Shown here: piece after piece, positions 1-20,909 of the stretch
Position numbering within the stretch: position 1 is the stretch's first letter
Layout of the letters: every line of letters starts with the position of its first letter
Source of the DNA: Methanothermobacter thermautotrophicus str. Delta H
GTDB lineage: Archaea; Methanobacteriota; Methanobacteria; Methanobacteriales; Methanothermobacteraceae
Assembly: GCF_000008645.1 (NCBI RefSeq)
Contig: NC_000916.1
Span: 600,001-632,000 of the forward strand
Length of the DNA stretch: 32,000 nucleotides
Direction: 5' to 3'
Made by a program: the position numbers and the translations under genes
The notes under the pieces: generated by a model
What the model was told of the DNA's origin: nothing
The model's database searches: none
What the model saw: the letters and a program-made list of their open reading frames with translations, nothing else

Positions 1-2941
1 CGCTGTCTGGTGAGAGCATCCCTGATACCATGAGGGCCACTTCACTGTCAGTCCAGTTGAGACCAAATGTGTCAAGTCCATAGGGCATCAGTGTACTGGT
101 AATGCTCAGAAGGTAGTCATGCACCCTGTCTATGTCATCGTCCGTCATGTTGGTTGCGTTAATCCCAAGATCCCTTGCAAGGTCAAGTTTGATTATGGTT
201 TCCCTGATCTGCTTTGCATATTCGTCTCTCATGGGGTTTCCAGTTGGTGTAGCCTCGTAACTTGACACGAGCCCTGCAAGTTCCTGAAGGTCACCGTAGA
301 GCTTTGTTCTTGTCAGCGGTGGTGTTAAATGATCTATGATCACTGCAAGTCCTCTTCTCTTGGCTTGCAGACCCTCTCCAACACCATCCATTATGTAGAT
401 GTATAGTGATGGTGTATCTCCTATGCATATATCAGGGTAATCAAAGGATGAGAGGGCATACTGTTTCCTTGGTGTCCACTCGTAGGTTGCGTGTCTTCCA
501 ACGTGTATCTGCGCATTTGCACCGAAAACCGTGTTTACCCATGCATACCATGCAAGGTAGCAGTGAGGTGGTGGAACTATTGTGCTGTGGTAGAGGTTTG
601 CAGCGTCGGCTTCCCATCCCCTCTGTGGTTCCGGGCCTATGAAGACATTTCCAAACATGAGCCCCGGGATCACTACGTACTTCCTTCCATTTCTTGTTAC
701 AACCATGACGTTTCCTGGTGGTTCACCCCAGCCAGTCATCCCTGAAACATTGAGGGCCATGAACTGGTTTTTGTAGATGTAGAAGAGATCCCATGCCGTT
801 GTGTTGGATGTGTTCCAGATGACTGCTGTCAGGGCAGCGCTCATTTTGTTTATAAGATCAATTGCTGTTCCTGCGATCTGAGGGTGTGTATTCGCATTTG
901 AGATCATCTCCTGGGTCCAGCGGTTGAGTGTCTTGAGCATTTCATCCCTGACCCTGCAGTCTCCTTCATTGATACACTGCACCGCAACCCTTGTGAGTTC
1001 CTCTATGTATCCAACGGGACCTTCAACCATCTCCTTGCGGGCAACAGGATCAAGTGTATTGAACCATGCAAGGTAGTCCTCGTATGGCCACAGTATTGCA
1101 TTTGAACTGTTTGCAAGTTTCTCAAGTTCACCGGGGGCCCAGTTGGCAACATTTATACCGTTTTTGATCATCATCTCAACCAGTGCATCAGCGTCCTGCG
1201 GTATTTCACCAACACTGTAGCCCTCTGCCTTCATGCGCTTGAGTATCTCAATGATACTTTCGGGGACATTAAGGTAACTTGCACCTATGTTCTGCTTACC
1301 CGGCGGGTAGTTGTAGTATACAATTGCCACCTTTTTGTCACTATTTGCCATGGTCTGGAGTCTGATCCAGTTGAAGGCCCTGCTGACAAGTTTCTCTATC
1401 CTCTCTGGAATGGTCACTGTTATGTCCCACTGTGCACCTGTTTCAGGATCTGAACCTATCTCACCCACACCTATGGCAAGTGGTTCTATCTGACCCTGCA
1501 TCTCTGGCTGTGCACACTGCCAGTAAACTGACATCCAGCTGAATCCCTCCTCTGAGACAATCCACTGACCAATTGTTCTGTATGTAGAACTGGTTATCAT
1601 TGCCCTCAGAACAGGGATATTTGATCTATCAAAGAACTTGGTAACACTGGCACCGGATGTTGTTGACCCGGTTATAAACGTCAGCATATCTATGATAACG
1701 TTTGCCTTGACAGGGTATTTTTCAGGGTTGGCCTCGTACTGAACAACGTTTGATGCATCTGTGAGAAACTTTACTAGGGCTGAATATACGTTCACCGGCT
1801 GTACTGTGCTGATCTTGAGACTCCTTATTAGGTTACCATTATCAAGTATCTGAACCTCATAAACATTCGCACTTGAGACGCTGGTAACACCAAGGATTGA
1901 TGTGAGGTCAGTGTAGTTCCCTATTCCCCTGATGGCAGTTATGTTGTAGGTCTGGTTTGGCATGCATAGCGTCTGGATAATGTTCTGCATACCAGTCTGG
2001 TTGAGGATGACATAATTTGACCATGTACCTATAACTGGTATGACGTTGAGTCCCCTTGAGACGAGTGCATCGATTATCTGCTGCATCGCATCAGCGTAGG
2101 TGACCTCCCCTGTGGATCCAACATAGCTCAGGACAGCCACTGTGGGTTTAGCTGGATCCAGAGGATATCTTGTGAAGTAATCCTCCTTTGTAAACCTCTG
2201 ACCATCACGGTAGAGGAATTCTGATGACAATGGAGAAGCTGGTTCAACAGTCGCAGGCTCCCAGCTGCTGTTCCATGGTATTCCGCGCATGTTATAGTAC
2301 ATCTTTAGTGCGAGTTTGAACTGATTTTCAAGGTTTGTTTTGCCCGCTGCTGCATAGTACAGGGCGCAATCTATCCACTGATGCAGTGCTGTGTTTCCAG
2401 GGTATTTCTGTTTATATGCTATAAGAGATGTAAGGTCTCCGTCGTGACATGCGCCTATTAAAGTACCTGGTCTATCGTATGTTCCAATATCACTGTCGTT
2501 AACACCAGTGAAGACCTCTGTATTGTTTATTCTGCTCAATTTGACGAGAGTTGGTCCGCTTTCAAATGCAAAAAACAGTTTGTTTTCTAATATTGATGGA
2601 TGGGCTCTTATAACAGCTTCAAAGGAACCGTTACCGGCGAGCTGTGTGCCCCATTCAGCAATTATAATACTGGAACTGTTGATGAGTGACAGTATCTCAT
2701 CGCCTGTCATGTTACCTATCTGTGTGGTGGATCTTATCTGGAAATTCACCCTCTTCGCATCCCTGTTTGTGAGGTTCATTACAGTGTATGCAACTTCATT
2801 GTAACTCTTTGTGGCTGTAGATGACCCTATAACCAGTACAGTAGTTGAATTATCCTCCGTGCTGTTGTCTGCTGCTGCCACGCTCTGGCAGAACATTAAC
2901 ATGAGAAGAACTGCTGTTACTGTAATCAGATGTTTTCTCAT
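1..2941 (-). CDS. CobN / Mg-chelatase-H family large-subunit homologue with N-terminal signal peptide (C-terminus lies beyond window start)
   Basis: Absent from the ORF track because it has no stop in the window. My manual minus-strand translation from ATG 2941 (SD GGAGGTG at 2951-2957) starts MRKHLITVTAVLLMLMFCQSVAAAD and appears open to base 1. It contains CobN-type motifs GNVFIGPEPQRGW, HVGRHATYEWTPRK and AVIIDHLTPP, plus many N-x-S/T sequons. Confidence 0.85.
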   Translation of the reverse strand, partial: MRKHLITVTAVLLMLMFCQSVAAADNSTEDNSTTVLVIGSSTATKSYNEVAYTVMNLTNRDAKRVNFQIRSTTQIGNMTGDEILSLINSSSIIIAEWGTQLAGNGSFEAVIRAHPSILENKLFFAFESGPTLVKLSRINNTEVFTGVNDSDIGTYDRPGTLIGACHDGDLTSLIAYKQKYPGNTALHQWIDCALYYAAAGKTNLENQFKLALKMYYNMRGIPWNSSWEPATVEPASPLSSEFLYRDGQRFTKEDYFTRYPLDPAKPTVAVLSYVGSTGEVTYADAMQQIIDALVSRGLNVIPVIGTWSNYVILNQTGMQNIIQTLCMPNQTYNITAIRGIGNYTDLTSILGVTSVSSANVYEVQILDNGNLIRSLKISTVQPVNVYSALVKFLTDASNVVQYEANPEKYPVKANVIIDMLTFITGSTTSGASVTKFFDRSNIPVLRAMITSSTYRTIGQWIVSEEGFSWMSVYWQCAQPEMQGQIEPLAIGVGEIGSDPETGAQWDITVTIPERIEKLVSRAFNWIRLQTMANSDKKVAIVYYNYPPGKQNIGASYLNVPESIIEILKRMKAEGYSVGEIPQDADALVEMMIKNGINVANWAPGELEKLANSSNAILWPYEDYLAWFNTLDPVARKEMVEGPVGYIEELTRVAVQCINEGDCRVRDEMLKTLNRWTQEMISNANTHPQIAGTAIDLINKMSAALTAVIWNTSNTTAWDLFYIYKNQFMALNVSGMTGWGEPPGNVMVVTRNGRKYVVIPGLMFGNVFIGPEPQRGWEADAANLYHSTIVPPPHCYLAWYAWVNTVFGANAQIHVGRHATYEWTPRKQYALSSFDYPDICIGDTPSLYIYIMDGVGEGLQAKRRGLAVIIDHLTPPLTRTKLYGDLQELAGLVSSYEATPTGNPMRDEYAKQIRETIIKLDLARDLGINATNMTDDDIDRVHDYLLSITSTLMPYGLDTFGLNWTDSEVALMVSGMLSPDS

Positions 2942-3126: not shown

Positions 3127-6027
3127 TTATTTTCCTGCTCCGCCCCTGAGGAATCCGAAGGCCACGAGACCAGCGGCAACAAGGACACCCACGATACCGT
3201 AGACGTACCATGAGGAGTCACCACCACTGGAACCTGAGGTCACATTCTTAACCTCATAGGCCTTTGAAGGGGTTGATGCAGGCTCCTCTGACACTGAAGA
3301 TGCAGCGCCCACCTCTGCAGGTGAAGCAGCCGTATCCACACCCGGTGAATAACCTGCATGTCCGCCGCTGATACCATCAGCTGAACCTGAGGGAACACCA
3401 CCAGGAACACCACCAGGAACACCACCAGGAACACCGCCCTGGTTTCCGTTCTGTGATCCTCCGTTGTTCACCGGAATGAGGTCAGCAAGGGTCCTGTTTG
3501 CAGGTATGCCCTTAACGTATGCAATGGGGTTCTGACCGTTTGCACCGGAGAGGATCATCTGAAGTTCACTCTCTGTGATGAGCCTCTCAGCATCGTAGGT
3601 CACAACCGGTGGAGCTGTCATGTAACTTGGTATCTCACCCTTGTAGAGGCTTATGAAGCCAGCTATCTGCTTCTCCCTTTTAGCATCATTGGTCGCACAG
3701 TCACTGGTATCGAATTGTGGCCATTTGAAGTCAATGACAACAGCCCTTCCAACCTTGTTCTTGTTGTCCCAGATAACAAGGATACCCTCAATGTTTCCGC
3801 CATAGGCGTATTCATTTTCAGGGTCGTTCTCTGTTCCGGGTACTCGAAGGTTGAAGTAGGTTCCCTGCCCGGGGGATACCCCCAGTCGGTAGACTATGGC
3901 GTCGTCCTTGCAGTAGATGGTGTTACCGAGGTAGATGTAGTTCTCATCCTCCTTGAGGGGATAGTTGTTGAATATGTACTCTGTTATCAGGTAGCCTGGT
4001 GATACACCTGGACATGCATGGTCATGGAAGAGGAATGTCAGCACCTGATCGTAGGGTGGGTCGTTCCTCCATGCATTTGCTATGCTCTGTATGTTGAACC
4101 ATCCATCCTTTGCAAAGACCTTTGATATCTTGTTGCTCAGCTGTGTGCTGTTCAGGGTCCTTGGGCCTATGTCATTCACGAATTTACCGTCTGAGGCATT
4201 GCTTGCAACAAGCTGACCTGTTGTCGGGTCATAGTAGATGTAGACTGCATCCATTGTCATGCCATCGTAGCCTCTGAGGGCAAATGTGAACCATAGTGGC
4301 TTCCAGAGTGGCCTGTGTACCGGCAGGAGGGTTGCCCTGCTGAGCCTTGATCCCAGGACATCGAATACTCCGTCCCAGGCTGCGCTCATATCCTGTCCAT
4401 TCACCCTTGAGTAACCAGCAGATGTTAACACCACAAGGTCCCTGTCATCCTTCTCAAGGTTTATACCCTTCTCTGTGAGGAATAACTGTTTTGCGAGGTT
4501 TGCAGCGTCAATTCCTATCTGTTTTATCTGGTTGTATGTGAGGTTACCCCATGATAATGTGTTGTTTTCACGGGTTGCATTGGAGAGTCCAAGACTGTCT
4601 ATGTATGCCATGTCAAGGCCATGGGCAATCTGGGCAGGTATCTGGTATGTGATGTTGTTTACCTTATCTGTGGCGTTCACAGGGTTTTCTGTACCCAGCA
4701 GATAGTAGTAGTGTGTAACATTGAGGTCCTTAAGTTCCCTGACGATTGTAATAAGTGATGTTGGGTCCTGTTTCAGTTTAGCTATGAGCCATGCATTGAA
4801 TTCAAGCTCTGTGTTCTTTCCGGTCTGCTGCTGGAACTGCCTCCTGAGTGCCTCCTTGTCAAACTTCATCACTATGAGGTCACCCTTGAGGGTGTTGGGG
4901 TTCCATCTTATGAAGCCAACAAGGTTGGTGTCTGCACCGGTGGCTGTTGTGTTGAATCCACTGTAGGATCCGCCCTTACCCGGTGTTGTGTCGAGGAACA
5001 TTAGGAGTGAATCATCATCTGAGTCGCCCGGTACACCCACTGTCACGTAGCTTGTTATCTCACCGGGTGATCCTGGATTTGTAAAGTCCATGACTGGTGG
5101 ATAGTACTTGAGGAGTGTCAGACTCATTGCATATCCGCTGATGGTACCCAGGCACATGTGCCCATGGAATGCAGCTGCCCTGAGAAGGTCTGATGGAGCT
5201 CCCTGGACCCAGGCATTGGCAAGGCTTGCAACAGGGAAAGCATGGTTCCCATATTTGCTTACCAGAAGGTTCCAGTTTGCCTCTGTCATGTTCTTTGTGA
5301 GGTCGATGGTGTATACCGCTTTACCGTTAACTGTTTTAATGACGACCGGTGATGTGCTTGCATTCTTGAAGTAGACTCCAAGGAGCGTTGCTCCTCTCTG
5401 GATTATGAAAAATGTGTCCAGTGGATCCACAGGGCTTTTCCTTATGACAAGAAGGTTGCCCTTACCATAGGTCACCCTTCCACCAGCCTGGTTGAGTATG
5501 CCCTCAATGACATCCTCTGATGTGTCGTTTCTGTATTTGACTATTCCTGCCGTTGTTATAACAAGCACGTTGCCGCTTGAGAAGTTGAGGATCTGGTCTG
5601 CCTTCTTTGTTATTTCCCTTCCCAGTTTGTAGGCGTCTGTGGCGTTCATTCGGAGCTGAAGTTTTGCGTAGTATTTTGTGTCCAGTGGATTTAGCGGGTT
5701 GGTTGAGATGGTGAATTCATGTAGAAGATCCCTGTAGCCGGGTGCTGTGACCTTGATCTTGAATTTTGTGGTGTTCGTGATGTTCTGGTAGTTGAATATG
5801 AGCTTTGTTATGTTTGCCGCCGGATCAAAGGTCTTTGTGAAGTTTATCTTTGTCCCGTTACTGTCAGTGATGTAGTTTATGTCAGGGTTTATACGGGAGT
5901 TATCGTCGGCGTATTCATATTTGACGTCAACCCCCACCTCACAGTTTGTATCAGCTGCACTCACAGAACCCGTAAGTGCCACAGCAACGAGAAGAACCAT
6001 GAAAACCATGAAATACTGTCTTCCCAT
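3127..6027 (-). CDS. Large secreted, C-terminally membrane-anchored protein with two FmdE-like motifs (function unknown)
   Basis: 966-aa ORF with SD GGAGGTG 7 nt upstream of ATG 6027. Signal-peptide-like N-terminus (MVFMVLLVAVALTGSVSAAD), about 20 N-x-S/T sequons, and two paralogous segments: ANAW..AAAFHGHMCLGTISGY (aa 270-299) and ANAW..FLFHDHACPGVSPGY (aa 650-679), resembling the FmdE family HGHxCPG signature. Gly/Pro/Ser linker, hydrophobic helix (aa ~940-960) and short basic tail. Confidence 0.85.
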   Translation of the reverse strand: MGRQYFMVFMVLLVAVALTGSVSAADTNCEVGVDVKYEYADDNSRINPDINYITDSNGTKINFTKTFDPAANITKLIFNYQNITNTTKFKIKVTAPGYRDLLHEFTISTNPLNPLDTKYYAKLQLRMNATDAYKLGREITKKADQILNFSSGNVLVITTAGIVKYRNDTSEDVIEGILNQAGGRVTYGKGNLLVIRKSPVDPLDTFFIIQRGATLLGVYFKNASTSPVVIKTVNGKAVYTIDLTKNMTEANWNLLVSKYGNHAFPVASLANAWVQGAPSDLLRAAAFHGHMCLGTISGYAMSLTLLKYYPPVMDFTNPGSPGEITSYVTVGVPGDSDDDSLLMFLDTTPGKGGSYSGFNTTATGADTNLVGFIRWNPNTLKGDLIVMKFDKEALRRQFQQQTGKNTELEFNAWLIAKLKQDPTSLITIVRELKDLNVTHYYYLLGTENPVNATDKVNNITYQIPAQIAHGLDMAYIDSLGLSNATRENNTLSWGNLTYNQIKQIGIDAANLAKQLFLTEKGINLEKDDRDLVVLTSAGYSRVNGQDMSAAWDGVFDVLGSRLSRATLLPVHRPLWKPLWFTFALRGYDGMTMDAVYIYYDPTTGQLVASNASDGKFVNDIGPRTLNSTQLSNKISKVFAKDGWFNIQSIANAWRNDPPYDQVLTFLFHDHACPGVSPGYLITEYIFNNYPLKEDENYIYLGNTIYCKDDAIVYRLGVSPGQGTYFNLRVPGTENDPENEYAYGGNIEGILVIWDNKNKVGRAVVIDFKWPQFDTSDCATNDAKREKQIAGFISLYKGEIPSYMTAPPVVTYDAERLITESELQMILSGANGQNPIAYVKGIPANRTLADLIPVNNGGSQNGNQGGVPGGVPGGVPGGVPSGSADGISGGHAGYSPGVDTAASPAEVGAASSVSEEPASTPSKAYEVKNVTSGSSGGDSSWYVYGIVGVLVAAGLVAFGFLRGGAGK
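3392..3439 (-). repeat. In-frame 12-nt tandem repeat x4 encoding (GGVP)4 in the C-terminal linker of the surface protein
   Basis: ggaacaccacca occurs three times exactly, followed by ggaacaccgccc. The translation reads GGVPGGVPGGVPGGVP. Confidence 0.9.
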
Positions 6028-6090: not shown

Positions 6091-6104
6091 AAGATATATA
6101 ATGC
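6091..6104 (-). promoter_or_regulatory. Candidate TATA box (GCATTATATATCTT on minus strand) for the surface-protein gene
   Basis: AT-rich TATA-like element about 65-75 nt upstream of ATG 6027, within the 335-bp gap downstream of the NAS gene. Confidence 0.3.
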
Positions 6105-6221: not shown

Positions 6222-6238
6222 AACACCATTCTGGTGTT
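6222..6238. promoter_or_regulatory. Second palindrome AACACCA-TTC-TGGTGTT
   Basis: Perfect 7-bp arms with a 3-nt spacer, 30 nt from the first palindrome in the same intergenic region. Confidence 0.4.
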
Positions 6239-6362: not shown

Positions 6363-7163
6363 TCAATCAGGACATTTAAAAACAAGTACCGAAGTGTTGT
6401 TAACCTTCCCTGATGGCAGGACAACTCCTGCCCTCCTGAATCCGGTGATATCATCATCACTGACAGGTGCGTAGAGGATAGCCCTCATACCTGTGTATGT
6501 CCTGTAGATAATCCGCGTTTCTGTATCAACATATCTGTGTATGTTCCTGAAAACCCTTCTCTTTGGCTCTGCAAGGGCCGCCACCATTAACACATCAAAT
6601 TCAAGACCATCAATGACGGTTTCATCTCCAGTTATGACATTCACACCATCAACTCCAAGGCCTTCGATGACCTTTCTTGAGAGCTCAGCGATGTCTGGTT
6701 CGATTTCAACAACATTAACTCTCATACCATAGACGTGTGAGAGAAGAATACCTGTAAGGGGTAGGGGACCACCTCCAATAAAAACTGCTCTCTCCCCTCT
6801 CCTGAATCTTCCAAGGGCAGCCTCATTCTTAAGTAGTTCAAGGTACCTTGGGTAGAAGTAGAATGACCTGAGGGTCTCCCAGGGTGAGTCTGACTCTATG
6901 ACCTCCTGTGCCTTTTCCATTTCAAGCTTCATCCCGAGATTCACGTAGAACTTCCTTATCAGGCTGAGTGCATGATTCATTTCAGCATCATCGAGGATGT
7001 GCTTTGCTGATTCAAAGTCAATGGTTGAGTCATGGGCTATCTCCTCGATTTCATCAAGAAGTGGCATGACCCCGCTGGTGTCCATCTCATCGAAGTGATA
7101 ATTCATTCCCTCGAGTCTTGAGGCTATCCTCTTTATCTTATCCCAGTAGATGTAGCAGCTCAT
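6363..7163 (-). CDS. Nicotianamine synthase-like enzyme (thermonicotianamine synthase, MtNAS-type)
   Basis: 266-aa ORF. I recognise the sequence (MSCYIYWDKIKRIASRLEG..., SAM-binding VFIGGGPLPLTG) from memory as the structurally characterised M. thermautotrophicus NAS homologue (MTH675). Confidence 0.92.
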   Translation of the reverse strand: MSCYIYWDKIKRIASRLEGMNYHFDEMDTSGVMPLLDEIEEIAHDSTIDFESAKHILDDAEMNHALSLIRKFYVNLGMKLEMEKAQEVIESDSPWETLRSFYFYPRYLELLKNEAALGRFRRGERAVFIGGGPLPLTGILLSHVYGMRVNVVEIEPDIAELSRKVIEGLGVDGVNVITGDETVIDGLEFDVLMVAALAEPKRRVFRNIHRYVDTETRIIYRTYTGMRAILYAPVSDDDITGFRRAGVVLPSGKVNNTSVLVFKCPD

Positions 7164-8500: not shown

Positions 8501-8866
8501 TTAGTTACCCATCCCAGGATTGATACCCGCGCCCTTCATTGCTTCCTGGATGTTGACCTGCATCTCCTGCAGTTTCTTCATGACGCGTTCTTCCTGTCTC
8601 TCAATTGTCTTCTCCCTGAGCTGGAGTGTTTCAAGTTTTTCCTGAAGTTCCTCTGTAAGTTCATCCTTGGCAACCCTGATGAGAATGTTACCTGAGCTCT
8701 TATATACTTCAGCGTCATCGGCAGCCCTTGAGAGTTCTTCAAGGGCCTTCTGTGTCTCATTAATCTGCATTTCAACCGTCTGTTTCTGCACAGATATTGC
8801 CTGTGCCTGCTGCTGCAGCTGCTGGAACTGAGCTAACTGGTGCTGTACATTCTGTGGAAGTTCCAT
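8501..8866 (-). CDS. pfdB: Prefoldin beta subunit
   Basis: 121-aa coiled-coil protein MELPQNVQHQLAQFQQLQQQAQAISVQKQ..., recognised as Methanothermobacter prefoldin (GimC) beta. Confidence 0.93.
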   Translation of the reverse strand: MELPQNVQHQLAQFQQLQQQAQAISVQKQTVEMQINETQKALEELSRAADDAEVYKSSGNILIRVAKDELTEELQEKLETLQLREKTIERQEERVMKKLQEMQVNIQEAMKGAGINPGMGN

Positions 8867-8889
8867 ATTATCACCTTCAAAATATCCAA

Positions 8890-9171
8890 TTATGTTGATC
8901 CCATCAATTCAAGAATCTCCATGGAAAGCTTCACCCAGCGCAGTGACGAATTGAGAGCCGCCCTGAAGGATGCTGAATCCCCTGCGCTTATGACAATGGT
9001 TATCCTGCCATCATCAAGTTCCATGGACATGGAAGACCTCTGGGAGGGCGAATCCATGACCTCAGGTTTGATGGCCCTGTAGATCACAGATGCTGATTCA
9101 GGGTCCGTCCTGATATCTATTACGCCCTGAATTCTCCTGAGACCCAACTCACTCACCGACCCTGAAATCAC
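8890..9171 (-). CDS. pcc1: KEOPS complex subunit Pcc1
   Basis: 93-aa ORF. The C-terminal SAGDSASFRAALNSSLRWVKLSMEILE matches the Pcc1 family pattern (compare Pyrococcus ATDSSALRGTVNSYLRWIKAAIDVIE). GTG start at 9171; an alternative GTG at 9156 would form a GTGAGTGA overlap with the upstream stop. Confidence 0.8.
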   Translation of the reverse strand: MISGSVSELGLRRIQGVIDIRTDPESASVIYRAIKPEVMDSPSQRSSMSMELDDGRITIVISAGDSASFRAALNSSLRWVKLSMEILELMGST

Positions 9172-9616
9172 GTATCAGGAGCTTAAAACCAGCGGGCGTC
9201 CCCCTGGCATCCATGAGCTCCATCACCCAGGCGTACTCTTCATCAGTCCTTATACTCCAGGCATCCCTGGATGAGGATTCATCCACCTCAAGGCCCATTA
9301 GATTGCAGAGGCCCTCAGATCCGGGAGGGCAGCTACTGACCCTTACCGCTTTATCTGCCAGTTCAGGTTTTTTCATTTCAAAGGACGGGTTGAAGAGGAT
9401 GTAACCCCTCTCCCCTCCCCTTTCATCGAGGAAGGTTATCCTTGCAGGGTTACCGTGCCTCTCAGAGACCACAGCCACCGGGCCCCTGGCCTCGATGAGC
9501 ACATCCCGCAGGCTCATCTTTCCCCTGTTAATGTACCTCCAGCCCATGATCCTGGAGAGCCTCTGGGAAAAGGACCTTGTGCGCTGGGATGGCTTTCTGG
9601 ATGTTGTGAGGAGCAT
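9149..9616 (-). CDS. Brix/Imp4-domain ribosome biogenesis protein
   Basis: 155-aa ORF beginning MLLTTSRKPSQRTRSFSQRL, the typical archaeal Brix N-terminus. Position in the conserved L37Ae-RpoP-Brix-Pcc1-PfdB gene order supports the call. Confidence 0.85.
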   Translation of the reverse strand: MLLTTSRKPSQRTRSFSQRLSRIMGWRYINRGKMSLRDVLIEARGPVAVVSERHGNPARITFLDERGGERGYILFNPSFEMKKPELADKAVRVSSCPPGSEGLCNLMGLEVDESSSRDAWSIRTDEEYAWVMELMDARGTPAGFKLLIRDFRVGE

Positions 9617-9617
9617 C

Positions 9618-9748
9618 CTACCGTGCCCTCAGGGTCCTCTTAACCGGAGGCACCTCCTTGAAGAGGATCCTGTACCTGCACCTTGGGCACTTGTTCTCCA
9701 TGTACTTCTTGGGGTCTATGAGTGTCCCGCACTGGCGCAGCGGTACAA
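9618..9748 (-). pseudogene. rpoP: RNA polymerase subunit P (Rpo12), reading frame broken by an apparent 1-nt deletion (or sequencing error / -1 frameshift)
   Basis: SD GGAGGT lies 7 nt upstream of TTG 9748. That frame reads M-Y-R-C-A then stops at TAG 9716-9718. The -1 frame continues [38 protein letters not shown] to TAG 9618-9620. Joined, these give a canonical CxxC...CxxC RpoP zinc ribbon of 43 aa. The span is 131 nt, not a multiple of 3. Confidence 0.7.
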
Positions 9749-12576: not shown

Positions 12577-13275
12577 TTATTTTATTAGCCTGGTTTCAAC
12601 GTTACCGCCTGTGAGTTCACTGAGCTTCTGATAGAAGCTGTCCTGAAGGCCTCCGGGTATTTCAACCACTGCTATCCATGATCCGTCGTTCTGCCATTCC
12701 TCGTTGGTTATTTTCCCGAAATTTGATATTACACCGTAGGCTGACCCCGCCCTTTCACCGGGTATCTTGATGGCCACCCTGACCTTCTCAAATTTAATGG
12801 GAATCTTGGTTCTGATGGCTTTCAGGACGATGTTGACCTGCTCATCAACGGTCTTGAATGGATCAACATGAACCCTGGCTTCCTCCATGGCCTTTTCAAT
12901 CCTCTTTGGAGGGTGAGGAAGTCCGTTCTGGGGGTTTATGGCCTCGCGTGCAATTTTATTGATGATCTTCAGGCGTTTATCCTCTATCATCTGCCTTCTC
13001 TGCTCTGCGGTGAGCTGTATTGTCCCCCTTCTTAGTATTACTGGTGTTACCTCAAGTGGGTCCGCTGTTTCAAAGACCTTCCTCATGGCCTCCTCAGATG
13101 CCTTATCACCCTTCCTGGCGTCCCTGAAGACCTCCTGAACCGCGAGGACATCCTCCACACTTACATCTGAGTCTTCCCTGCGGAATTCAGCTGCCAGGTC
13201 AGGGTCCACAAGGACCTCGAATCTCTCGCCATGGGATTCAAGCCGGGCGATAACTGCATCTTCAAGGCTGACCAT
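12577..13275 (-). CDS. SBDS/Sdo1 ribosome maturation protein
   Basis: 232-aa ORF beginning [32 protein letters not shown] family, in its conserved superoperon position. Confidence 0.92.
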
Positions 13276-13278
13276 TTT

Positions 13279-14025
<747 letters not shown>

Positions 14026-14090
14026 TTTTCTAACCTCTCTTTATTGATGGATAATTTATGTAATCATGAGTCATGTGATGAAGATTTTAA

Positions 14091-14465
14091 TCAGTATTTA
14101 TCTTTCTTGGAAGGTTTAATAAACTTTTGTGTTGCCGAGCGTATCGTCCCTGAAAGGCCGAGGATGTGGATGGCGACCCTCACCCCGCTGTGGTGGTGGG
14201 CGCATGTGAGGGCCATCATGACCCTCCTCTCATAGCCCCTCTGGCACTGGAGTATGCCCCTCACCCTGACGGCGTCTGGAAAATCGAACCTCCAGAGCTT
14301 CATGAGCCATAAACGGAAATTTGATGTTTCACACTCCCCATGCAGCTTGAGGCAGCTATCCCATATGAGGGAGACAAGTTCCTCCCTTGAGAGCTCCCTC
14401 TCACTGATCACCTCAAAGGCTATGTACCTCCTGGGGACCCTCAGTGTTGGTGGCAGTATCTTCAT
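14091..14465 (-). CDS. rnp2: RNase P protein component 2 (Pop5 homologue)
   Basis: 124-aa ORF beginning MKILPPTLRVPRRYIAFEV. Pop5 family, in the conserved neighbourhood. Confidence 0.88.
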   Translation of the reverse strand: MKILPPTLRVPRRYIAFEVISERELSREELVSLIWDSCLKLHGECETSNFRLWLMKLWRFDFPDAVRVRGILQCQRGYERRVMMALTCAHHHSGVRVAIHILGLSGTIRSATQKFIKPSKKDKY

Positions 14466-14482
14466 CCTTCATGGACTCACCT

Positions 14483-15199
14483 TTAACTCTCAGGGAGGAG
14501 CCTCACACCCTCTGCAATCAGGAGGTGACGGTTCCCTGAGTCCTCAAGTATCGATGCGGGGGTTGATGTGAGGGATTCCTCTGCCTCACTGGACTCCATA
14601 CCGAAGCATTCTGCGAGGTTCATGATATCGCCGGGAGTCCTCAGGTCATATATGGAGGAGGCCCTGCTGGTGAGGAGCAGTGGAAAACCGAACTTTCTGT
14701 GGAGTTTCAGGATCTCCCTGAACTGTTCAAGGACCCTTGCCCGTACCTTGAGCCAGGACCCGATGACGTCCGCCAGGGGGAGTTCAACAGCCACATTGTT
14801 TCTTGCAGCCTCCCTTGCGAGGACATGGTTGATGCCAGGGTCCCTCCTTGAAGTGTAGGGTGCTGAGAGGACATCAACCCGCCTGCTCTCACATGCGGCC
14901 CTGTTAACCTTGAGGTTGCCCCCTGAGACATAGATCACGTCAGCCTTTTTCCTGAATTTATTCACGGATCTCCTCATATCACGGGGGTCAGATGCATTTA
15001 TCATTACACCCCTGGCTATCTCAAAGTCCTGGAGTTCAGGGTTCTCCCTGAGGGATTCAAGGTCTGATTTGAGGTCAGGGTATCTCTCAGAAGGGTATAC
15101 CAGAACTCCGCCCTGATAGCCGAGACGTGATGCCTCAAGGAGGAGTCTCAGGCTGGAATCATGGTCCCTGCCCTGTATGTGGAAGTCAAAGAATTTCAT
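14483..15199 (-). CDS. rnp3: RNase P protein component 3 (Rpp30 homologue)
   Basis: The ORF runs to a TTG at 15220 that abuts the upstream stop. I prefer ATG 15199 (MKFFDFHIQGRD...). PHP/TIM-barrel-like Rpp30 family. Confidence 0.88.
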   Translation of the reverse strand: MKFFDFHIQGRDHDSSLRLLLEASRLGYQGGVLVYPSERYPDLKSDLESLRENPELQDFEIARGVMINASDPRDMRRSVNKFRKKADVIYVSGGNLKVNRAACESRRVDVLSAPYTSRRDPGINHVLAREAARNNVAVELPLADVIGSWLKVRARVLEQFREILKLHRKFGFPLLLTSRASSIYDLRTPGDIMNLAECFGMESSEAEESLTSTPASILEDSGNRHLLIAEGVRLLPES

Positions 15200-15220
15200 C
15201 AGAATCCTTTGGGGAATCAA

Positions 15221-15637
15221 TCATTCAAGTATCTTCCTGATGTTCTCTACCGCAACTTCCCTCTTTGCGGGGTAGGCCTCCACCTTGATCTTCAGGTGGA
15301 TTGCATCACCGTGCCTCACGGGTTCCCAGACCCCCTCAAGGGCCTTCTGCTTGTCCAGTCGAAGGAAAAGGTTGCCGTTCTCATCGAATCTGTCCTCAAG
15401 TTCGTCCATGCGGCCCCTGAAGACCTCTGTGAATTTCTCCATGAATTCCCTGAGTGCCCTTCTGCGGTCCAGCCTTCCCCTGAGAACCGTTATGGGGTTT
15501 CCATGGTAGCCCTCGGCGCTCTCCCTTTCAGGTGTGGCCCCCGGGATTACGTTTCTGAGGGCCTCAATGACCTTTTCCTCGTCCTCTGTACCGTATACCA
15601 TGAGGCGGTAGGAGATGTTGTGTATCATGTCCCTCAT
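15221..15637 (-). CDS. DUF54 / PF01877-type RNA-binding protein (COG1325, predicted exosome-associated subunit)
   Basis: 138-aa ORF in the conserved slot between L15e and Rpp30 of the archaeal superoperon. Family assignment is from memory of that gene order and the sequence style. Confidence 0.75.
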   Translation of the reverse strand: MRDMIHNISYRLMVYGTEDEEKVIEALRNVIPGATPERESAEGYHGNPITVLRGRLDRRRALREFMEKFTEVFRGRMDELEDRFDENGNLFLRLDKQKALEGVWEPVRHGDAIHLKIKVEAYPAKREVAVENIRKILE

Positions 15638-15711
15638 AAAAAAAGTTAAGACGGGGGGCTTTATCTTACCTTCTCAGCCCCTTTACCCCTGTTTCGGAGG
15701 CCCCTGTTCTT

Positions 15712-16209
15712 TTAGCCTTCACTTATGAGGCCCCTGAAGACACGTCCCCTGTGCTGTTTTACACATATCCAGTATATCTTGGGGTCGTTCTTGATTGCTA
15801 GGTGGTTTGGATCCACGAGGATGACCTCATAGAACTTGTATTTTCCATCTTCCCATACCCAGTAGGAGTTGAGGACCTCCATGTTCGGGTATTTTCTTGC
15901 AACCCTCTCCTCTGCGATCCTCTTGATACTCTTTGCGGTGGTTATCTTCTTCACACCCATCCTCGTGGGCCTTCTACCTGCCTTGAACCTGGTTTTCCTC
16001 TGGCTTCCGCGTCTTACACGTGTCCTTACAACTATGTATCCAGGTTTTGCCCTGTAACCCAGTGCCCTTGCACGGTCTATTCTGGTTGGTCTTTCTATCC
16101 TCTTGATTACGGGATCCCTTCTCCACTTTGGAGCCCTCTCCCACATTAGCTCCCTTACATAGGAGTCCTTTGGATTCTTCCATGCATCTTTAACGTATCT
16201 GTACATCAT
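15712..16209 (-). CDS. rpl15e: 50S ribosomal protein L15e
   Basis: 165-aa ORF beginning [31 protein letters not shown]. The second ATG at 16206 has better SD spacing (GAGGTG). Confidence 0.95.
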
Positions 16210-16379
16210 TTACACCTCTATTCTGTTCGGCTTTACGCCACATCCATGGGAACGTATCCCTGAAAAATAGCGGTTTAGGTGCTACTACATCTGGTGTGAT
16301 CACTTAAAAAGTTTACTGTCAGTCACATCAATGAAATGTCAGTGAAGGTCCGTTTAATGGAAAAATCAAAGGTGTTGTT

Positions 16380-16703
16380 TCAGTCCTCGAGGACCTCGTA
16401 GAGTATTCTCATAGCCTTGACAAAGGGTGGATTGCCTGAGGTGAGGAGAACAACACGCAGGACATCAACTATCTCATCCCTTGTGACTCCGAACTCGTTT
16501 ATGGCACTCTGTATCTGTTTTTTAACTGCACGGTCATCGGAGTTTGCTGCTGTTATCCCGAGGGCTATGAGTTTCTGTGTCCTGTAATCAAGGACCTTAC
16601 CTGTGTAGGCGGCCTCATTCAGTTTAACAACTGCCTCATATATGTCAGGGTAGTCCTCCTTCACGTGCACCATGCCCTTCCCATAGAAAACATCCTCTTT
16701 CAT
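16380..16703 (-). CDS. Carboxymuconolactone decarboxylase (AhpD-like) family protein
   Basis: Start taken at ATG 16703 (MKEDVFYGKG...), with SD GGAGGTG upstream. CMD-domain pattern LDYRTQKLIALGITAANSDDRAVKKQIQSAINEFGVTRDEI. Confidence 0.8.
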   Translation of the reverse strand: MKEDVFYGKGMVHVKEDYPDIYEAVVKLNEAAYTGKVLDYRTQKLIALGITAANSDDRAVKKQIQSAINEFGVTRDEIVDVLRVVLLTSGNPPFVKAMRILYEVLED

Positions 16704-16869
16704 ATTTAGCACCTCCATTCTAATTATGTTCAAGGCGATATTTATAAGTAACATGAGCCCTGATCTGGTGCTTTACAGAGAATAAACACATTAAAGGATG
16801 ATAAATATAGCGCCTTTTTACAGAAAAGGTAAGGAGAATAAACGGCAAAAAAATGTAATTAAAAATGAA

Positions 16870-17826
16870 TCAATGCTTTTCAGGTTTTTCAGCCGGCTGT
16901 GATTCTGTCTCGACCTCTGAAACCCCTTTATCTTCGGGATCTGAGAGCATCTCTGAGATTCCTGCAATGGATCCAAGTATGCCTGTGGCCTCCACGGGTA
17001 GCAGAATCTTTGTTGCCCTTCCATCTGCAACCTTTTCAAGGGCCTCAAGGTACTTCAGTGCTATTATATCATTTGTCGGGTCACCCTCGTGCATGGCCCT
17101 GAAAACTGACAGTATGGCCTTGGCCTGTCCCTCTGCTATGGCTATTTCCCTGTACTTGTTGGCATCTGCGACCTTCTTTATGGCCTCTGCCTTACCCTCT
17201 GCCTCCAGGATGGCTGCCTGCTTATCACCCTCAGCCCTCTTTATTTCTGACTGCTTGTAGCCCTCAGCCTCGAGGATAGCCGCCCTCTTCATACGTTCGG
17301 CCTTCATCTGCTTTGACATGGCCTCAACGATGTCACCCGGAGGCTCTATGCGCTGTATCTCAACACGGACGACCCGGGTCCCCCACTTGTCTGTGGCCTC
17401 GTCAAGCACCTCACGTAGCTGTGTGTTTATCATCTCCCTTGATGTTAGGGTCTGGTCGAGTTCAAGGTCCCCTATTATGTTCCTGAGGTTGGTCTGGGCA
17501 AGTTTGGTTATGGCCTGGTAGAAGTCAACGACGTTGTAGACAGCGTTGAAGGGGTCAACCACCTCATAGAATATCACGCAGTCCACCACAACAACTGTGT
17601 TGTCCTTGGTTATGACCTCCTGTGGGGGGACATCAACCACCTGTTCCCTCATGTCGACCTTCTTTATGGCCTCTATGAATGGTATTATGACCACGAGTCC
17701 GCTCTCCACGGTCCTCTGGTATTTACCCAGCCTCTCGACAACACCCTTCTCATAGGGTCTGAGTATCTTAAGGCTCTTGAATGCCAGTACAAGCAGTACC
17801 AGTACTATTATCAGCTCAAGTATCAT
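16870..17826 (-). CDS. SPFH-domain stomatin/prohibitin homologue
   Basis: 318-aa ORF with an N-terminal TM helix, an SPFH core ([22 protein letters not shown]...) and an Ala/Glu/Lys coiled coil. ATGA overlap with nfeD. Confidence 0.92.
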
Positions 17827-18251
17827 TTCTGTTCCTCCAGTTTTTCAACAACGAGTTTAACGCCCTCAATGGCCTTCACACTTACCTCTTCACCCACATC
17901 AAGCACTGTGCCTGATGTGGCCCTCCATGTTTCACCATCAACCTTCACGAGGCCAGAGTTCTGGGGGCTGATTGCCTCCATCACAACTCCCTTTCTCCCT
18001 ATCAGTCTATCGGATACTGCCTTTTTTGATGGTTCGCCGGTTATGCGTGCTGCGAATGGCCTTGAAACTCCAAGGAGGACAACTGAAACAGCGGCGAATG
18101 TTATGAACTGCGCTGTAGTGTCGAATCCAAGGTATCCGAGGGCCGCTGCTGCCAGTGCTCCAAAGGCAAACCATAGGAGGAAGAAGCCCGTTGTGAGCAT
18201 CTCACCTATGAGGCATATGGCCGCTATTATTATCCATGACTCCGGTCCCAT
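17823..18251 (-). CDS. NfeD-family membrane protein (stomatin partner)
   Basis: Hydrophobic N-terminal half followed by a C-terminal OB-like domain ([29 protein letters not shown]). ATG 18251 has SD GGTGG 5 nt upstream; the track ORF begins at GTG 18263. Confidence 0.85.
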
Positions 18252-19125: not shown

Positions 19126-20238
19126 ATGAGGTTCATAACACTCGTTCTGAAGAATCCATTCAGAAGCCGTGCAAGGAGTCTCCTTGCAATTACAGGTATT
19201 GCAATAGGGATTGCAACCATAGTAACCCTTGGCGTTATAACAGAGGGTCTGAAGACGTCCACAGAGGACACACTGAAGGCCGGAGGCGCTGACTTCACCA
19301 TAGTGGAGTCCAATGTCTCGGACATGTTCTTTAGCAAGATAGATGAGGAATACGTTGATAGGGTCAGGAATGTGAGCGGGGTGGAGGACGCTGTGGGGAT
19401 CCTCATGGCGGTCCAGCCGCTGGATGACAACCCCTACTTCGTTTTAATAGGTATAGACCCTGCGAAGATCAATATGAGCCAGATAAAGATAACAGAGGGG
19501 AGAACACTCCAGGACCCTGATGCAGATGAGGTCATAATGGGCAAGGTTGCATCTGAGAACCATGGAAAGAAAGTCGGTGACACCATAAAGATAAAGAACC
19601 GTGAGTACAGGGTCGTGGGCATATTCGAGTCAGGTGATATGCAGCAGGACTCAGGTGCGTTCATCTCACTTAAGAAACTCCAGAGGATAGAGGATAAGGA
19701 GGGCAAGCTCACCATGATATATGTGAAAATGACCCGAAATTCAGCTGTGGAGGATGTCACCGATAGAATCGAGAAGAGGTACAGTGACCTCACAACCATA
19801 GCCTCCCTGGAGGACCTCCAGAGCGTCGACCAGGGACTTCAGACCATCGACACTGCTACATGGGCCATTTCACTCCTCGCCATAATAATAGGAGGTATAG
19901 GAGTAATAAATACCATGATAATGTCCGTTTTTGAGAGGACAAGGGAGATCGGAGTTCTCAAGGCTGTTGGCTGGAGGGACAGGAGGATACTCGCCATGAT
20001 CCTTGGAGAATCTGTGGTCCTCACCGCCATTGCGGGTGCTGCTGGTTCAGTGCTCGGAGTCGCAGCGATACAGGTCCTCCTCGCCCTCGGGATGAAGGGA
20101 TTCATAGAGCCAGTCTACAGTCCTGAAATCTTCATGAGGGCCTTTGCGGTGGCATTCACAGTGGGTATACTAGGAGGGCTCTACCCTGCCTACCGGGCCT
20201 CAAGGCTTGCCCCCACCGAGGCCCTCAGGTACGAGTAG
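19126..20238 (+). CDS. ABC transporter permease, FtsX/MacB type
   Basis: 370-aa ORF. N-terminal TM helix, then a large extracytoplasmic domain, then a C-terminal FtsX-like three-TM bundle (REIGVLKAVGWRDRRILAMILGES...). Confidence 0.88.
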   Translation: MRFITLVLKNPFRSRARSLLAITGIAIGIATIVTLGVITEGLKTSTEDTLKAGGADFTIVESNVSDMFFSKIDEEYVDRVRNVSGVEDAVGILMAVQPLDDNPYFVLIGIDPAKINMSQIKITEGRTLQDPDADEVIMGKVASENHGKKVGDTIKIKNREYRVVGIFESGDMQQDSGAFISLKKLQRIEDKEGKLTMIYVKMTRNSAVEDVTDRIEKRYSDLTTIASLEDLQSVDQGLQTIDTATWAISLLAIIIGGIGVINTMIMSVFERTREIGVLKAVGWRDRRILAMILGESVVLTAIAGAAGSVLGVAAIQVLLALGMKGFIEPVYSPEIFMRAFAVAFTVGILGGLYPAYRASRLAPTEALRYE

Positions 20239-20246
20239 GTGATAGC

Positions 20247-20909
20247 ATGAAGGCCATAGAAGTCAGGGACCTCAGAAAGAGTTTTGATAGCGGGAGGATA
20301 AGGGCCCTTAACGGGGTCAACCTTGAGGTCGATGGTGGAGAGTTCATATCAATAATGGGACCATCAGGTTCCGGTAAATCAACCCTCCTTAACATGATAG
20401 GCGCCCTTGACGTTCCTGACTCCGGCACGATCTGTGTAGCCGGCAGGGACCTCTCAAGGGAAAGGGATCTTAGCCGGCTGAGGGCCGAGGAGATAGGTTT
20501 CGTGTTCCAGCTGCACAACCTCATACCCAACCTTACGGCCCTTGAGAACGTGGAGATACCCATGTTTGCGGTTAAACATGAGAACATGGAGGAACGTGCC
20601 ATGGAGCTCCTTGAATATGTTGATCTCGCTGATAAGGCCCACAGGAAGCCCACGGAACTATCTGGTGGTGAACGCCAGAGGGTTGCCATTGCACGTGCCC
20701 TCGCCAATGATCCATCCATAATACTTGCAGATGAGCCAACAGGGTCCCTTGATTCAAGGACCAGCCAGAGAGTCCTCAGAAAGCTGAGGGAGCTCCAGGA
20801 GGACGAGGGGGTGACCCTGGTTGTTGTGACCCATGAACCAGACGTGGCTGCCATGGCCTCAAGGACCATCAGGATACTGGATGGCGTTATTGTGGACGAC
20901 GGGTATTGA
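20247..20909 (+). CDS. ABC transporter ATP-binding protein (MacB/LolD-like)
   Basis: Walker A GPSGSGKST, signature LSGGERQRVAIARAL, Walker B IILADEPTGSLD. Confidence 0.95.
   Translation: MKAIEVRDLRKSFDSGRIRALNGVNLEVDGGEFISIMGPSGSGKSTLLNMIGALDVPDSGTICVAGRDLSRERDLSRLRAEEIGFVFQLHNLIPNLTALENVEIPMFAVKHENMEERAMELLEYVDLADKAHRKPTELSGGERQRVAIARALANDPSIILADEPTGSLDSRTSQRVLRKLRELQEDEGVTLVVVTHEPDVAAMASRTIRILDGVIVDDGY

Follow-up and report, generated by a model that had tools for sequence, protein, structure and literature searches.

MTH674 of Methanothermobacter thermautotrophicus, a surface-anchored protein with two FmdE modules, as a candidate for nickel capture

Methanogens have an unusually high need for nickel, for F430, hydrogenases, and CODH/ACS, and the supply of nickel limits methane production, in natural settings as well as in biogas reactors. 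A 32,000-nt stretch of the Methanothermobacter thermautotrophicus str. Delta H genome (contig NC_000916.1, positions 600,001 to 632,000; hereafter the window) holds a gene, MTH674, that raises the question of what two FmdE modules (Pfam PF02663) would be doing on the outside of such a cell. The database entry for MTH674 reads "unknown function"; the gene was recognized as MTH674 because the adjoining nicotianamine synthase (NAS) family protein is identical to AAB85180.1 (MTH675) in an exact-sequence look-up. Pfam, a hydrophobicity scan, and a structural model together describe the product as a two-FmdE-module, surface-anchored protein. With a probability of roughly 0.6, we read it as a cell-surface protein that captures nickel (possibly also cobalt) and hands it off within a high-affinity uptake system of the Methanobacteriales that is induced by nickel starvation. 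This reading draws on the nickel-specific induction of an orthologue, invariant candidate ligands, export and anchoring signals, and linkage to nickel/cobalt importers of three classes and to nikR. Feature coordinates are collected in Table 1.

The first-pass annotation of the window had inferred a surface-anchored layout from a signal peptide, about 20 N-x-S/T sequons, a (GGVP)4 plus Ser/Gly/Ala linker, and a single C-terminal transmembrane (TM) helix with a short basic tail, and each of these elements is borne out. The hydrophobic N-terminal segment covers aa 4-24 in the hydrophobicity scan and ends VSA, with AD following; AlphaFold2 draws a helix at aa 4-17 and a low-confidence stretch at aa 18-24. 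Sequons number 21 against 9.3 +/- 2.8 expected, a count reached in 1 of 2000 shuffles. At the other end of the protein, (GGVP)4 lies at aa ~853-868, predicted local distance difference test (pLDDT) values stay below 50 across aa 855-944, and a TM helix at aa 940-960 (~940-960 in the hydrophobicity scan) is followed by the tail LRGGAGK. The AlphaFold2 model, built on the family alignment, has a mean pLDDT of 83.8 and a predicted TM-score (pTM) of 0.83, and is made up of a beta-sandwich at aa 28-127, two units, the disordered stretch, and the TM helix. Foldseek matches to the beta-sandwich are weak and Ig-like. A Pfam match of the same domain to Shr-like_HID (E 0.004) is sub-threshold and was rejected as evidence of heme binding.

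The outward-facing topology is conserved across the family. Within a set of 104 homologues from four genera, on which all conservation figures for the full-length protein below are based, 86 have a signal-like N-terminal segment and 100 have a C-terminal TM helix. No archaeal sortase-type sorting domain (PGF-CTERM and relatives) was recognized in the MTH674 protein, NCBIfam gives no family for it, and its tail, K-A-Y-E-V followed by a TM helix, is not among catalogued sorting signals.

Both FmdE modules score above the Pfam threshold. For the whole protein, the PF02663 match reaches 95.4 bits (E 3.9e-27) over two stretches, and searches by halves gave 44.9 bits for module 1 and 56.0 bits for module 2 against a cut-off of 22.9, with module 2 covering profile positions 1-129 of 133. 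The first pass had placed a pair of paralogous segments of about 30 aa here; their starts, at aa 268 and 648, were right, and the true extent of the duplication is a unit of ~310 aa that includes an accessory domain not noticed before. The paralogy is clear from BLASTP of module 1 against module 2 (28% identity, E 1e-10) and from hhalign comparison of the two halves of the 104-sequence family alignment, in which aa ~134-445 aligns with aa ~503-826 over 290 columns (probability 99.5%, E 4.5e-23). Each repeat consists of an accessory alpha+beta "A" domain (TTAG/TSAGY motif), the FmdE core, and a helical extension. When modelled alone, the A domain reached a pLDDT of 92.2, and Foldseek found no solved structural relative for it (best E 0.43, TM 0.25). 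In unit 1, Y133, A160, and G161 of the A domain are invariant.

The candidate ligands and the residues that accompany them do not vary among the 104 homologues: H288, H290, C292, S336, and D339 in module 1, H668, H670, C672, C706, and D709 in module 2, and H571 in the A domain of unit 2. The two sites are not equivalent. Ser336 aligns with Cys706, so that module 1 has S336-D-D-D339 where module 2 has C706-K-D-D709; module 2 thus presents a full His-His-Cys-Cys set, whereas module 1 presents His-His-Cys with an invariant Ser at the fourth ligand position. Unit 1 is the diverged copy, with Arg for His in the A domain and Ser for Cys in the core. The earlier suggestion of conserved His/Cys ligands exposed outside the cell therefore stands for seven invariant candidate ligands and has to be amended in that the sites are unequal.

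Foldseek of the full model against the PDB returned 2glz as the top hit (probability 0.99, target TM-score 0.54, E 0.014), the modest E-value reflecting a query of 966 residues; the match agrees with the alpha+beta core of the solved N-terminal FmdE domain. Sequence and profile searches of PDB chains with the whole protein, each module, and the 104-sequence profile found no FmdE structure; weak matches to CASK and protein A in these searches were set aside as chance. In the FmdE-like protein 2GLZ, His15, His17, Cys19, and Cys55 form the site within FHGHxC and C-x-x-D motifs (Asp58), and this His-His-Cys-Cys site has mixed Zn/Ni occupancy (PMC2954224).

The assignment to nickel is suggested by published proteome data for the M. 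marburgensis orthologue MTBMA_c10580 (ADL58652; UniRef D9PWQ4; P0138 in our set, cluster representative P0003). This protein is 77% identical to the MTH674 protein over the full length, its gene lies in the same gene order, and it adjoins the CobN-like MTBMA_c10550-10570, the counterpart of MTH673. Its intensity was 2.6e7, 1.9e7, and 1.3e7 at 5 uM Ni and 5.5-7.3e9 (about 6.4e9) at 250, 125, 50, and 10 nM Ni (PMC12350162, supplementary file 8). These values amount to a ~340-fold rise, to ~3% of total intensity and comparable to Hmd, and make MTBMA_c10580 the most strongly induced member of its cluster. It is down under Fe limitation and flat under H2/CO2 limitation (PMC12350162). In the same data MTBMA_c10530, an ExbB homologue by gene order, went from ~5.5e6 at 5 uM to 1.6-2.1e8 under Ni limitation (~30-40-fold), MTBMA_c10540, DUF2162 by gene order, was detected under Ni limitation only, and CobN1 (MTBMA_c06860) went from ~7.4e6 at 5 uM to ~2.3e9 (~300-fold). 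The authors of this 2025 Nature study named MTBMA_c10530 as a possible Ni transporter; their main text mentions "possible metal-chelating proteins" and CobN1, and MTBMA_c10580 was not found named or discussed in it. According to a 2011 genome review of both model Methanothermobacter species, no Ni transporter had been identified in them. The first-pass proposal of metal binding at the surface was generic, and the evidence points specifically to the acquisition of nickel (or cobalt).

Full-length homologues of ~870-1100 aa occur across the Methanobacteriales, in Methanothermobacter, Methanobacterium, Methanobrevibacter, and Methanosphaera, and are annotated as "FmdE family protein" only; tblastn of the MTH674 protein against a plasmid collection gave no match. 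When 1.84 billion representatives were searched exhaustively with unit 2 (HMMER), only 208 relatives came up at E <= 1e-3, many of them single units of ~330-400 aa. A signal-like N-terminus, HxHxC, and the second Cys are present in all 42 of the single-unit relatives sampled, and across a mixed archaeal/bacterial alignment the equivalents of T535, A537, G538, Y539 (the TNAGY motif), and H571 are at least 90% conserved. Unit 2 has the features of this subfamily, namely a signal peptide, an accessory domain with T-[NS]-A-G-[Y] and the His, and HxHxC with a second Cys. Judged from these sequences, an extracellular FmdE is the hallmark of a small secreted subfamily, the rule for the branch rather than an anomaly of one protein, and the earlier view of the location as unusual is not supported. 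The secreted A+FmdE branch is not described in the literature searched, and the structural paper on the family is silent on signal peptides (PMC2954224).

Two observations concern paralogues. The proteins P0250, P0256, P0269, and P0283 (820-870 aa) are archaeal surface-anchored two-unit paralogues with degenerate His/Cys motifs (for example GSSGGVS and GGGCPGSG), probably metal-free derivatives with another role. Separately, a small cytoplasmic FmdE+zf-dskA_traR protein is encoded directly next to a surface or secreted FmdE protein at an M. thermautotrophicus paralogue locus (L005:9316-9831, -) and in a bacterial nik-type operon (L082:8162-8779, +), an arrangement that hints at an outside-to-inside relay between FmdE proteins.

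The genomic setting was examined in a census that took in 51 archaeal loci flanked by at least 8 kb and counted genes within 10 kb. CbiM-like genes are found in 40 of the 51, ExbB plus DUF2149 in 18, DUF2162 in 16, CobN-like in 12, and NAS in 8; at least one of CbiM-like, ExbB, CobN-like, and NAS is present in 44. No NikR gene was seen in the flanks of the archaeal loci, and neither the window genes that were scanned nor the related loci that were inspected include an fmd or fwd gene. The tie to fmd/fwd operons belongs to the founding FmdE members only and not to the whole Pfam family (PMC2954224). Syntenic Methanothermobacter loci (L004, L006) read NAS, FmdEx2, CobN-like, DUF2162, MotA/ExbB, and DUF2149, and the M. 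oryzae operon reads FmdEx2, small secreted protein, CbiM-like, small secreted protein, DUF2162, ExbB, DUF2149, CbiM, and CbiN. The CbiM-family gene that travels with the FmdE gene (L010:13481-14104, with equivalents in the 40 loci) is divergent, scoring 116.8 bits against an NCBIfam cut-off of 219; CbiQ and CbiO are missing beside it, and in M. oryzae a bona fide CbiM-CbiN pair stands further along the same operon.

Six bacterial contexts of the secreted unit were also inspected (L077, L078, L079, L081, L082, and L083). In L077 (Syntrophobacterales) a nikR gene (RHH + NikR_C) is followed by the secreted unit, SBP_bac_5, two permeases, and an ATPase, a nikR-X-nikABCD arrangement. The unit adjoins SBP_bac_5-type (Nik/Opp-type) ATP-binding cassette (ABC) importers in L078 and L082, the latter being the operon with the cytoplasmic FmdE and zinc-finger gene. 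In L083 (Syntrophus aciditrophicus) it sits between a TonB-dependent receptor and tonB-exbB-exbD-cbiA-C-K-D. A cobalamin riboswitch (L083:9559-9794, +; 106 bits) lies in this locus between the secreted FmdE-unit/DUF8180 genes and tonB-exbB-exbD-cbiA-cbiC-cbiK-cbiD; the 159-aa open reading frame (ORF) called there is probably spurious.

Taken together, these data suggest how capture of nickel might proceed. After Sec export, an ectodomain of ~830 residues would face outward, and with the flexible linker of ~90 residues it could extend into the pseudomurein wall or past it. Ni2+ picked up from the surroundings would bind at the sites, whether as the free ion or after release from a complex, be it with a nicotianamine-type chelator or something else. 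From there the metal would be handed to a membrane permease, which would be CbiM-like in most genera and DUF2162 and/or an energy-coupling factor (ECF) NikMNQO system in Methanothermobacter. The transfer would be assisted by the CobN-like protein, which is secreted and co-induced, and by the proton-channel pair of ExbB and DUF2149.

A more elaborate version of this scheme would give the ExbB/DUF2149 pair a motor function. The proton-driven motor would couple, through their conserved C-terminal TM anchors and with no outer membrane involved, to both the FmdE protein and the CobN-like protein, which share a Pro/Gly/Ser linker, K[AS]YEV, and a similar TM helix. Its energy would pull tightly bound Ni off the surface sites, or strip it from tetrapyrroles or nicotianamine, and drive the metal into the CbiM-like or DUF2162 permease. 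We regard this coupling as quite unlikely; if true, archaea would have a counterpart of TonB-dependent uptake assembled from other components.

Several observations weigh against nickel capture by MTH674. Module 1 lacks the full ligand set, and the solved FmdE site takes Zn at least as well as Ni (PMC2954224). No CbiM-like gene lies within the window, and the ExbB, DUF2149, and DUF2162 genes are off it and known by synteny alone. In Syntrophus the neighbours suggest cobalt or cobalamin instead of nickel, and two of the six bacterial contexts (L079 and L081) show no transporter. The Ni proteome data come from the M. marburgensis orthologue, a different strain from that of MTH674. The M. wolfeii orthologue A0A9E7RTD5 (P0003) rises under thermal stress, with a differential-abundance value of 3.3 (Eng Microbiol 2026, PMC13355700), so that regulation is not exclusively by Ni.

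Much of the same evidence can be arranged around chelated metal. The FmdE protein and the secreted CobN-like protein would then form an extracellular de-chelation or exchange station for Ni/Co tetrapyrroles (F430, Ni-porphyrins, corrinoids) or Ni-nicotianamine, the FmdE modules receiving freed metal or binding the complex, by analogy with the Bacteroidota heme de-chelatase HmuS. The adjacent NAS and CobN-like genes (the latter recurring in the 12 loci above), the secreted and anchored layout that CobN-like proteins share, and the co-induction of CobN1 would fit such a station. So would the set of CobN-like protein, membrane protein, ExbB, and DUF2149, which mirrors hmuSTUV with its proven de-chelatase HmuS; the HmuS paper describes the role of the archaeal homologues as unclear. 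The incomplete ligands of module 1 could leave room for a ligand-bearing metal, and the M. ferruginis locus has MtrA-like and CbiZ genes in its vicinity. However, the CobN-like and NAS frames are fragmented in M. wolfeii, and M. marburgensis has its CobN-like gene annotated in three parts while the FmdE protein is still the top-induced one there; CobN1, encoded elsewhere, could substitute for the CobN-like protein. Most Methanobrevibacter loci have CbiM-like and ExbB genes with no CobN or NAS, the bacterial relatives keep company with Nik/Opp-type transporters (with nikR adjoining in L077), and no tetrapyrrole-binding feature was detected. On balance we consider a de-chelation station rather unlikely.

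Still other readings question the metal, or whether metal is handled at all. A protein specific for Zn or Co, or a surface metal buffer or sensor whose rise under Ni limitation is secondary, would agree with the Zn in the equivalent site of two solved FmdE proteins (PMC2954224), with the Syntrophus relative in a cobalamin/cobalt cluster under a B12 riboswitch, and with CbiM-family neighbours that are named as cobalt transporters. It appears improbable given the ~340-fold increase already at 250 nM Ni, the decrease under Fe limitation, the nikR-linked operon L077, and a share of proteome intensity (~3%) that would be a large investment for a sensor. The classic surface layout, Ig-like N-terminal domain, and heavy sequon load could also describe a structural surface glycoprotein or adhesin with vestigial FmdE modules, and some archaeal relatives have indeed lost the His/Cys motifs (the four degenerate paralogues above). 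Seven candidate ligands and His571 held invariant over four genera, Ni-specific regulation, and linkage to transporter genes leave this very improbable. The proposal of PMC13355700, that A0A9E7RTD5, as a stress-induced paralogue, attaches to cytoplasmic FmdE and stabilizes formylmethanofuran dehydrogenase, has behind it the thermal response, AlphaFold3/PEPPI models that predict FmdE-FmdE contacts (PMC13355700), and the structural similarity of FmdE cores. We find it barely credible, since the signal peptide, TM anchor, sequons, and disordered linker put the FmdE modules on the exterior of the cell, no fmd genes were seen among the neighbours scanned, and Ni limitation is a far stronger inducer.

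The neighbouring genes themselves deserve a closer look. MTH673, cut by the window edge, carries a signal peptide and 20 sequons. Its full-length form, P0212 (1706 aa; L004:13101-18032), is 99% identical to the window partial. At its C-terminus a Ser/Gly/Pro linker leads into KSYEV, a TM helix, and a basic tail, an anchor of the same build as that of MTH674 with its KAYEV plus TM helix. To judge from these tails, K[AS]YEV plus a TM helix may serve for sorting or anchoring as a signal outside the catalogues, or may be a docking element common to both proteins. MTH673 falls below every NCBIfam CobN/BchH equivalog cut-off, and a word-limited homologue search for an orthologue of CobN1 gave only MTH673-type and strain-variant CobN. 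CobN-like proteins at the MTH673 position are ~45% identical between Delta H and KEPCO2, against 81-88% for the flanking genes. In M. wolfeii (L006) the NAS (8841-9643) and CobN-like (13080-17954) genes are fragmented, with the FmdE gene and DUF2162-ExbB-DUF2149 intact, and in M. marburgensis the CobN-like gene is annotated as three coding sequences (CDS; MTBMA_c10550-10570), which implies the same layout as in M. wolfeii. Beyond NAS follow a GNAT gene and the archaeal exosome/prefoldin superoperon.

Between NAS and MTH674 lie a TATA-like box, likely MTH674's own promoter on sequence grounds, and two palindromes. In KEPCO2, a G-to-A change in one arm of the second palindrome is paired with C-to-T in the other. 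Both palindromes were found only upstream of Methanothermobacter orthologues and are absent from other cluster genes, which gives no sign of a shared Ni operator; they could be an operator (perhaps for NikR) and a terminator or attenuator. Elsewhere in the window, a MacB/FtsX-type permease and an ABC ATPase (MTH695/696; 19126-20909, +) are paired by the 2011 review with MTBMA_c10830/10840, an "ABC transporter" that appears under Ni limitation in the 2025 proteome (PMC12350162), which makes this a second Ni-responsive locus ~13 kb from MTH674. An AMP-binding (acyl/acetyl-CoA synthetase-type) enzyme is spread over two ORFs (23553-24830 and 24858-25232, +), with an N-terminal domain of 425 aa and a C-terminal one of 124 aa; a frameshift or stop could explain this, as could a gene that is genuinely split. 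The window gave no hits in Rfam and tRNA scans.

Table 1. Features of MTH674 and its surroundings, in window coordinates
Feature	Position	Strand	Basis and remarks
MTH674, complete CDS	3127..6027	-	ATG start, 966 aa; ORF list, Pfam FmdE twice, full-length orthologue match
Signal peptide, aa 1-24 (MGRQYFMVFMVLLVAVALTGSVSA, then AD)	5956..6027	-	hydrophobicity scan; model; homologue N-termini
N-terminal beta-sandwich (Ig-like) domain, aa 28-127	5647..5946	-	5 sequons; all-beta, pLDDT ~90
Unit 1 accessory A domain, aa 128-262	5242..5646	-	motif VITTAG; Arg replaces conserved His; profile self-alignment
FmdE module 1 and helical extension, aa 263-445	4693..5241	-	FH288GH290MC292, invariant S336, D339; Pfam
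Unit 2 accessory A domain, aa 498-645	4093..4536	-	motif LTSAGY; His571
FmdE module 2 and C-terminal extension, aa 646-850	3478..4092	-	FH668DH670AC672 ... C706-K-D-D709; Pfam
Disordered linker, aa 851-939	3211..3477	-	(GGVP)4, Ser/Gly/Ala-rich stretch, K-A-Y-E-V motif
C-terminal TM helix and short basic tail, aa 940-966 (...GIVGVLVAAGLVAFGFLRGGAGK)	3130..3210	-	hydrophobicity scan; model; homologues
CobN/Mg-chelatase-like protein (MTH673), secreted, downstream neighbour	1..2941	-	window-edge partial; CobN-Mg_chel 486.9 bits
NAS family protein (MTH675 = AAB85180.1), upstream neighbour	6363..7163	-	Pfam NAS 83.3 bits; exact match
TATA-like box (ATTATATAT)	6094..6102	-	~70 nt 5' of ATG; block conserved in three Methanothermobacter species
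Palindrome AACACCA-N3-TGGTGTT	6222-6238	-	between NAS and MTH674; conserved in three Methanothermobacter species
Palindrome TTCATGGGG-N3-CCCCATGAA	6170-6194	-	conserved in three Methanothermobacter species; terminator-like hairpin after NAS

The FmdE domain family was already known, and the MTH674 protein is annotated in databases. Undescribed in the literature searched are the secreted A+FmdE unit, its tandem anchored form in the Methanobacteriales, the non-equivalent pair of sites, and the link to nickel starvation and to CbiM-like, ExbB, DUF2149, CobN-like, and NAS genes. The 2025 study of the Ni-limitation response highlighted only the ExbB-like "transporter" and CobN1 (PMC12350162); here, the most abundant Ni-limitation-induced protein of the cluster is tied to a surface pair of FmdE sites, a conserved neighbourhood, and nikR-linked bacterial relatives. 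For the first step of high-affinity nickel capture in methanogens, MTH674 thereby becomes a concrete candidate that can be tested, and a general role in extracytoplasmic Ni/Co handling is suggested for the secreted branch of the enigmatic FmdE family. The topology also argues against the published reading of the orthologue as a cytoplasmic FmdE partner (PMC13355700).

Among known systems, the solved FmdE proteins (2GLZ from D. hafniense, 2GVI from T. acidophilum, and 3D00 from S. aciditrophicus) share with MTH674 the PF02663 profile, FHGHxC, and, in module 2, C-x-x-D; 2GLZ is its best structural match. The Joint Center for Structural Genomics (JCSG) authors noted that many PF02663 genes lie beside metal transporters (PMC2954224). 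The solved proteins are small (~150-200 aa) homodimers, some with a C-terminal zinc finger, whereas the MTH674 protein is exported, membrane-anchored, and rich in sequons, and has two modules per chain, each after an accessory domain without a solved relative. It shows no link to fmd operons in the loci inspected, and in its module 1 a Ser takes the place of the fourth ligand.

The Bacteroidota hmuYRSTUV system offers a second likeness, as the CobN-like protein, polytopic membrane protein, MotA/ExbB, and DUF2149 of the syntenic Methanothermobacter cluster correspond to the HmuS, T, U, V set, and both systems are induced by starvation for their own metal. The signal is iron there and nickel here, however, the FmdE protein has no Hmu counterpart, and the archaeal CobN-like proteins are TM-anchored outside the cell. 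No HmuY hemophore or TonB-dependent receptor was found in any archaeal locus inspected, as there is no outer membrane; given this, and an orthologue that is down under Fe limitation, MTH674 is not filed as a Hmu system. The resemblance to TonB would be one of architecture only: a single TM helix with a Pro/Gly-rich extended linker, beside an ExbB-type channel and ExbD-like DUF2149 in the syntenic loci. The TM helix of MTH674 is C-terminal and not N-terminal as in TonB, and the protein has no TonB C-terminal domain and no outer-membrane receptor to energize.

A further parallel lies with the NikABCDE and Nik(MN)QO-CbiMNQO importers, for which Rodionov et al. in 2006 reportedly described the extracytoplasmic accessories NikA and NikK/NikL. 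In the usual description, ECF transporters need no extracytoplasmic binding protein. NikA (SBP family 5) has no sequence or fold relation to the MTH674 protein, and the adjacent CbiM-like gene scores well short of its family cut-off. Shared ground is the linkage of MTH674 homologues to CbiM-family S-components in most of the archaeal loci and of the bacterial relatives to nikR-nikABCD-type operons, and the extracytoplasmic location of the MTH674 protein fits substrate capture.

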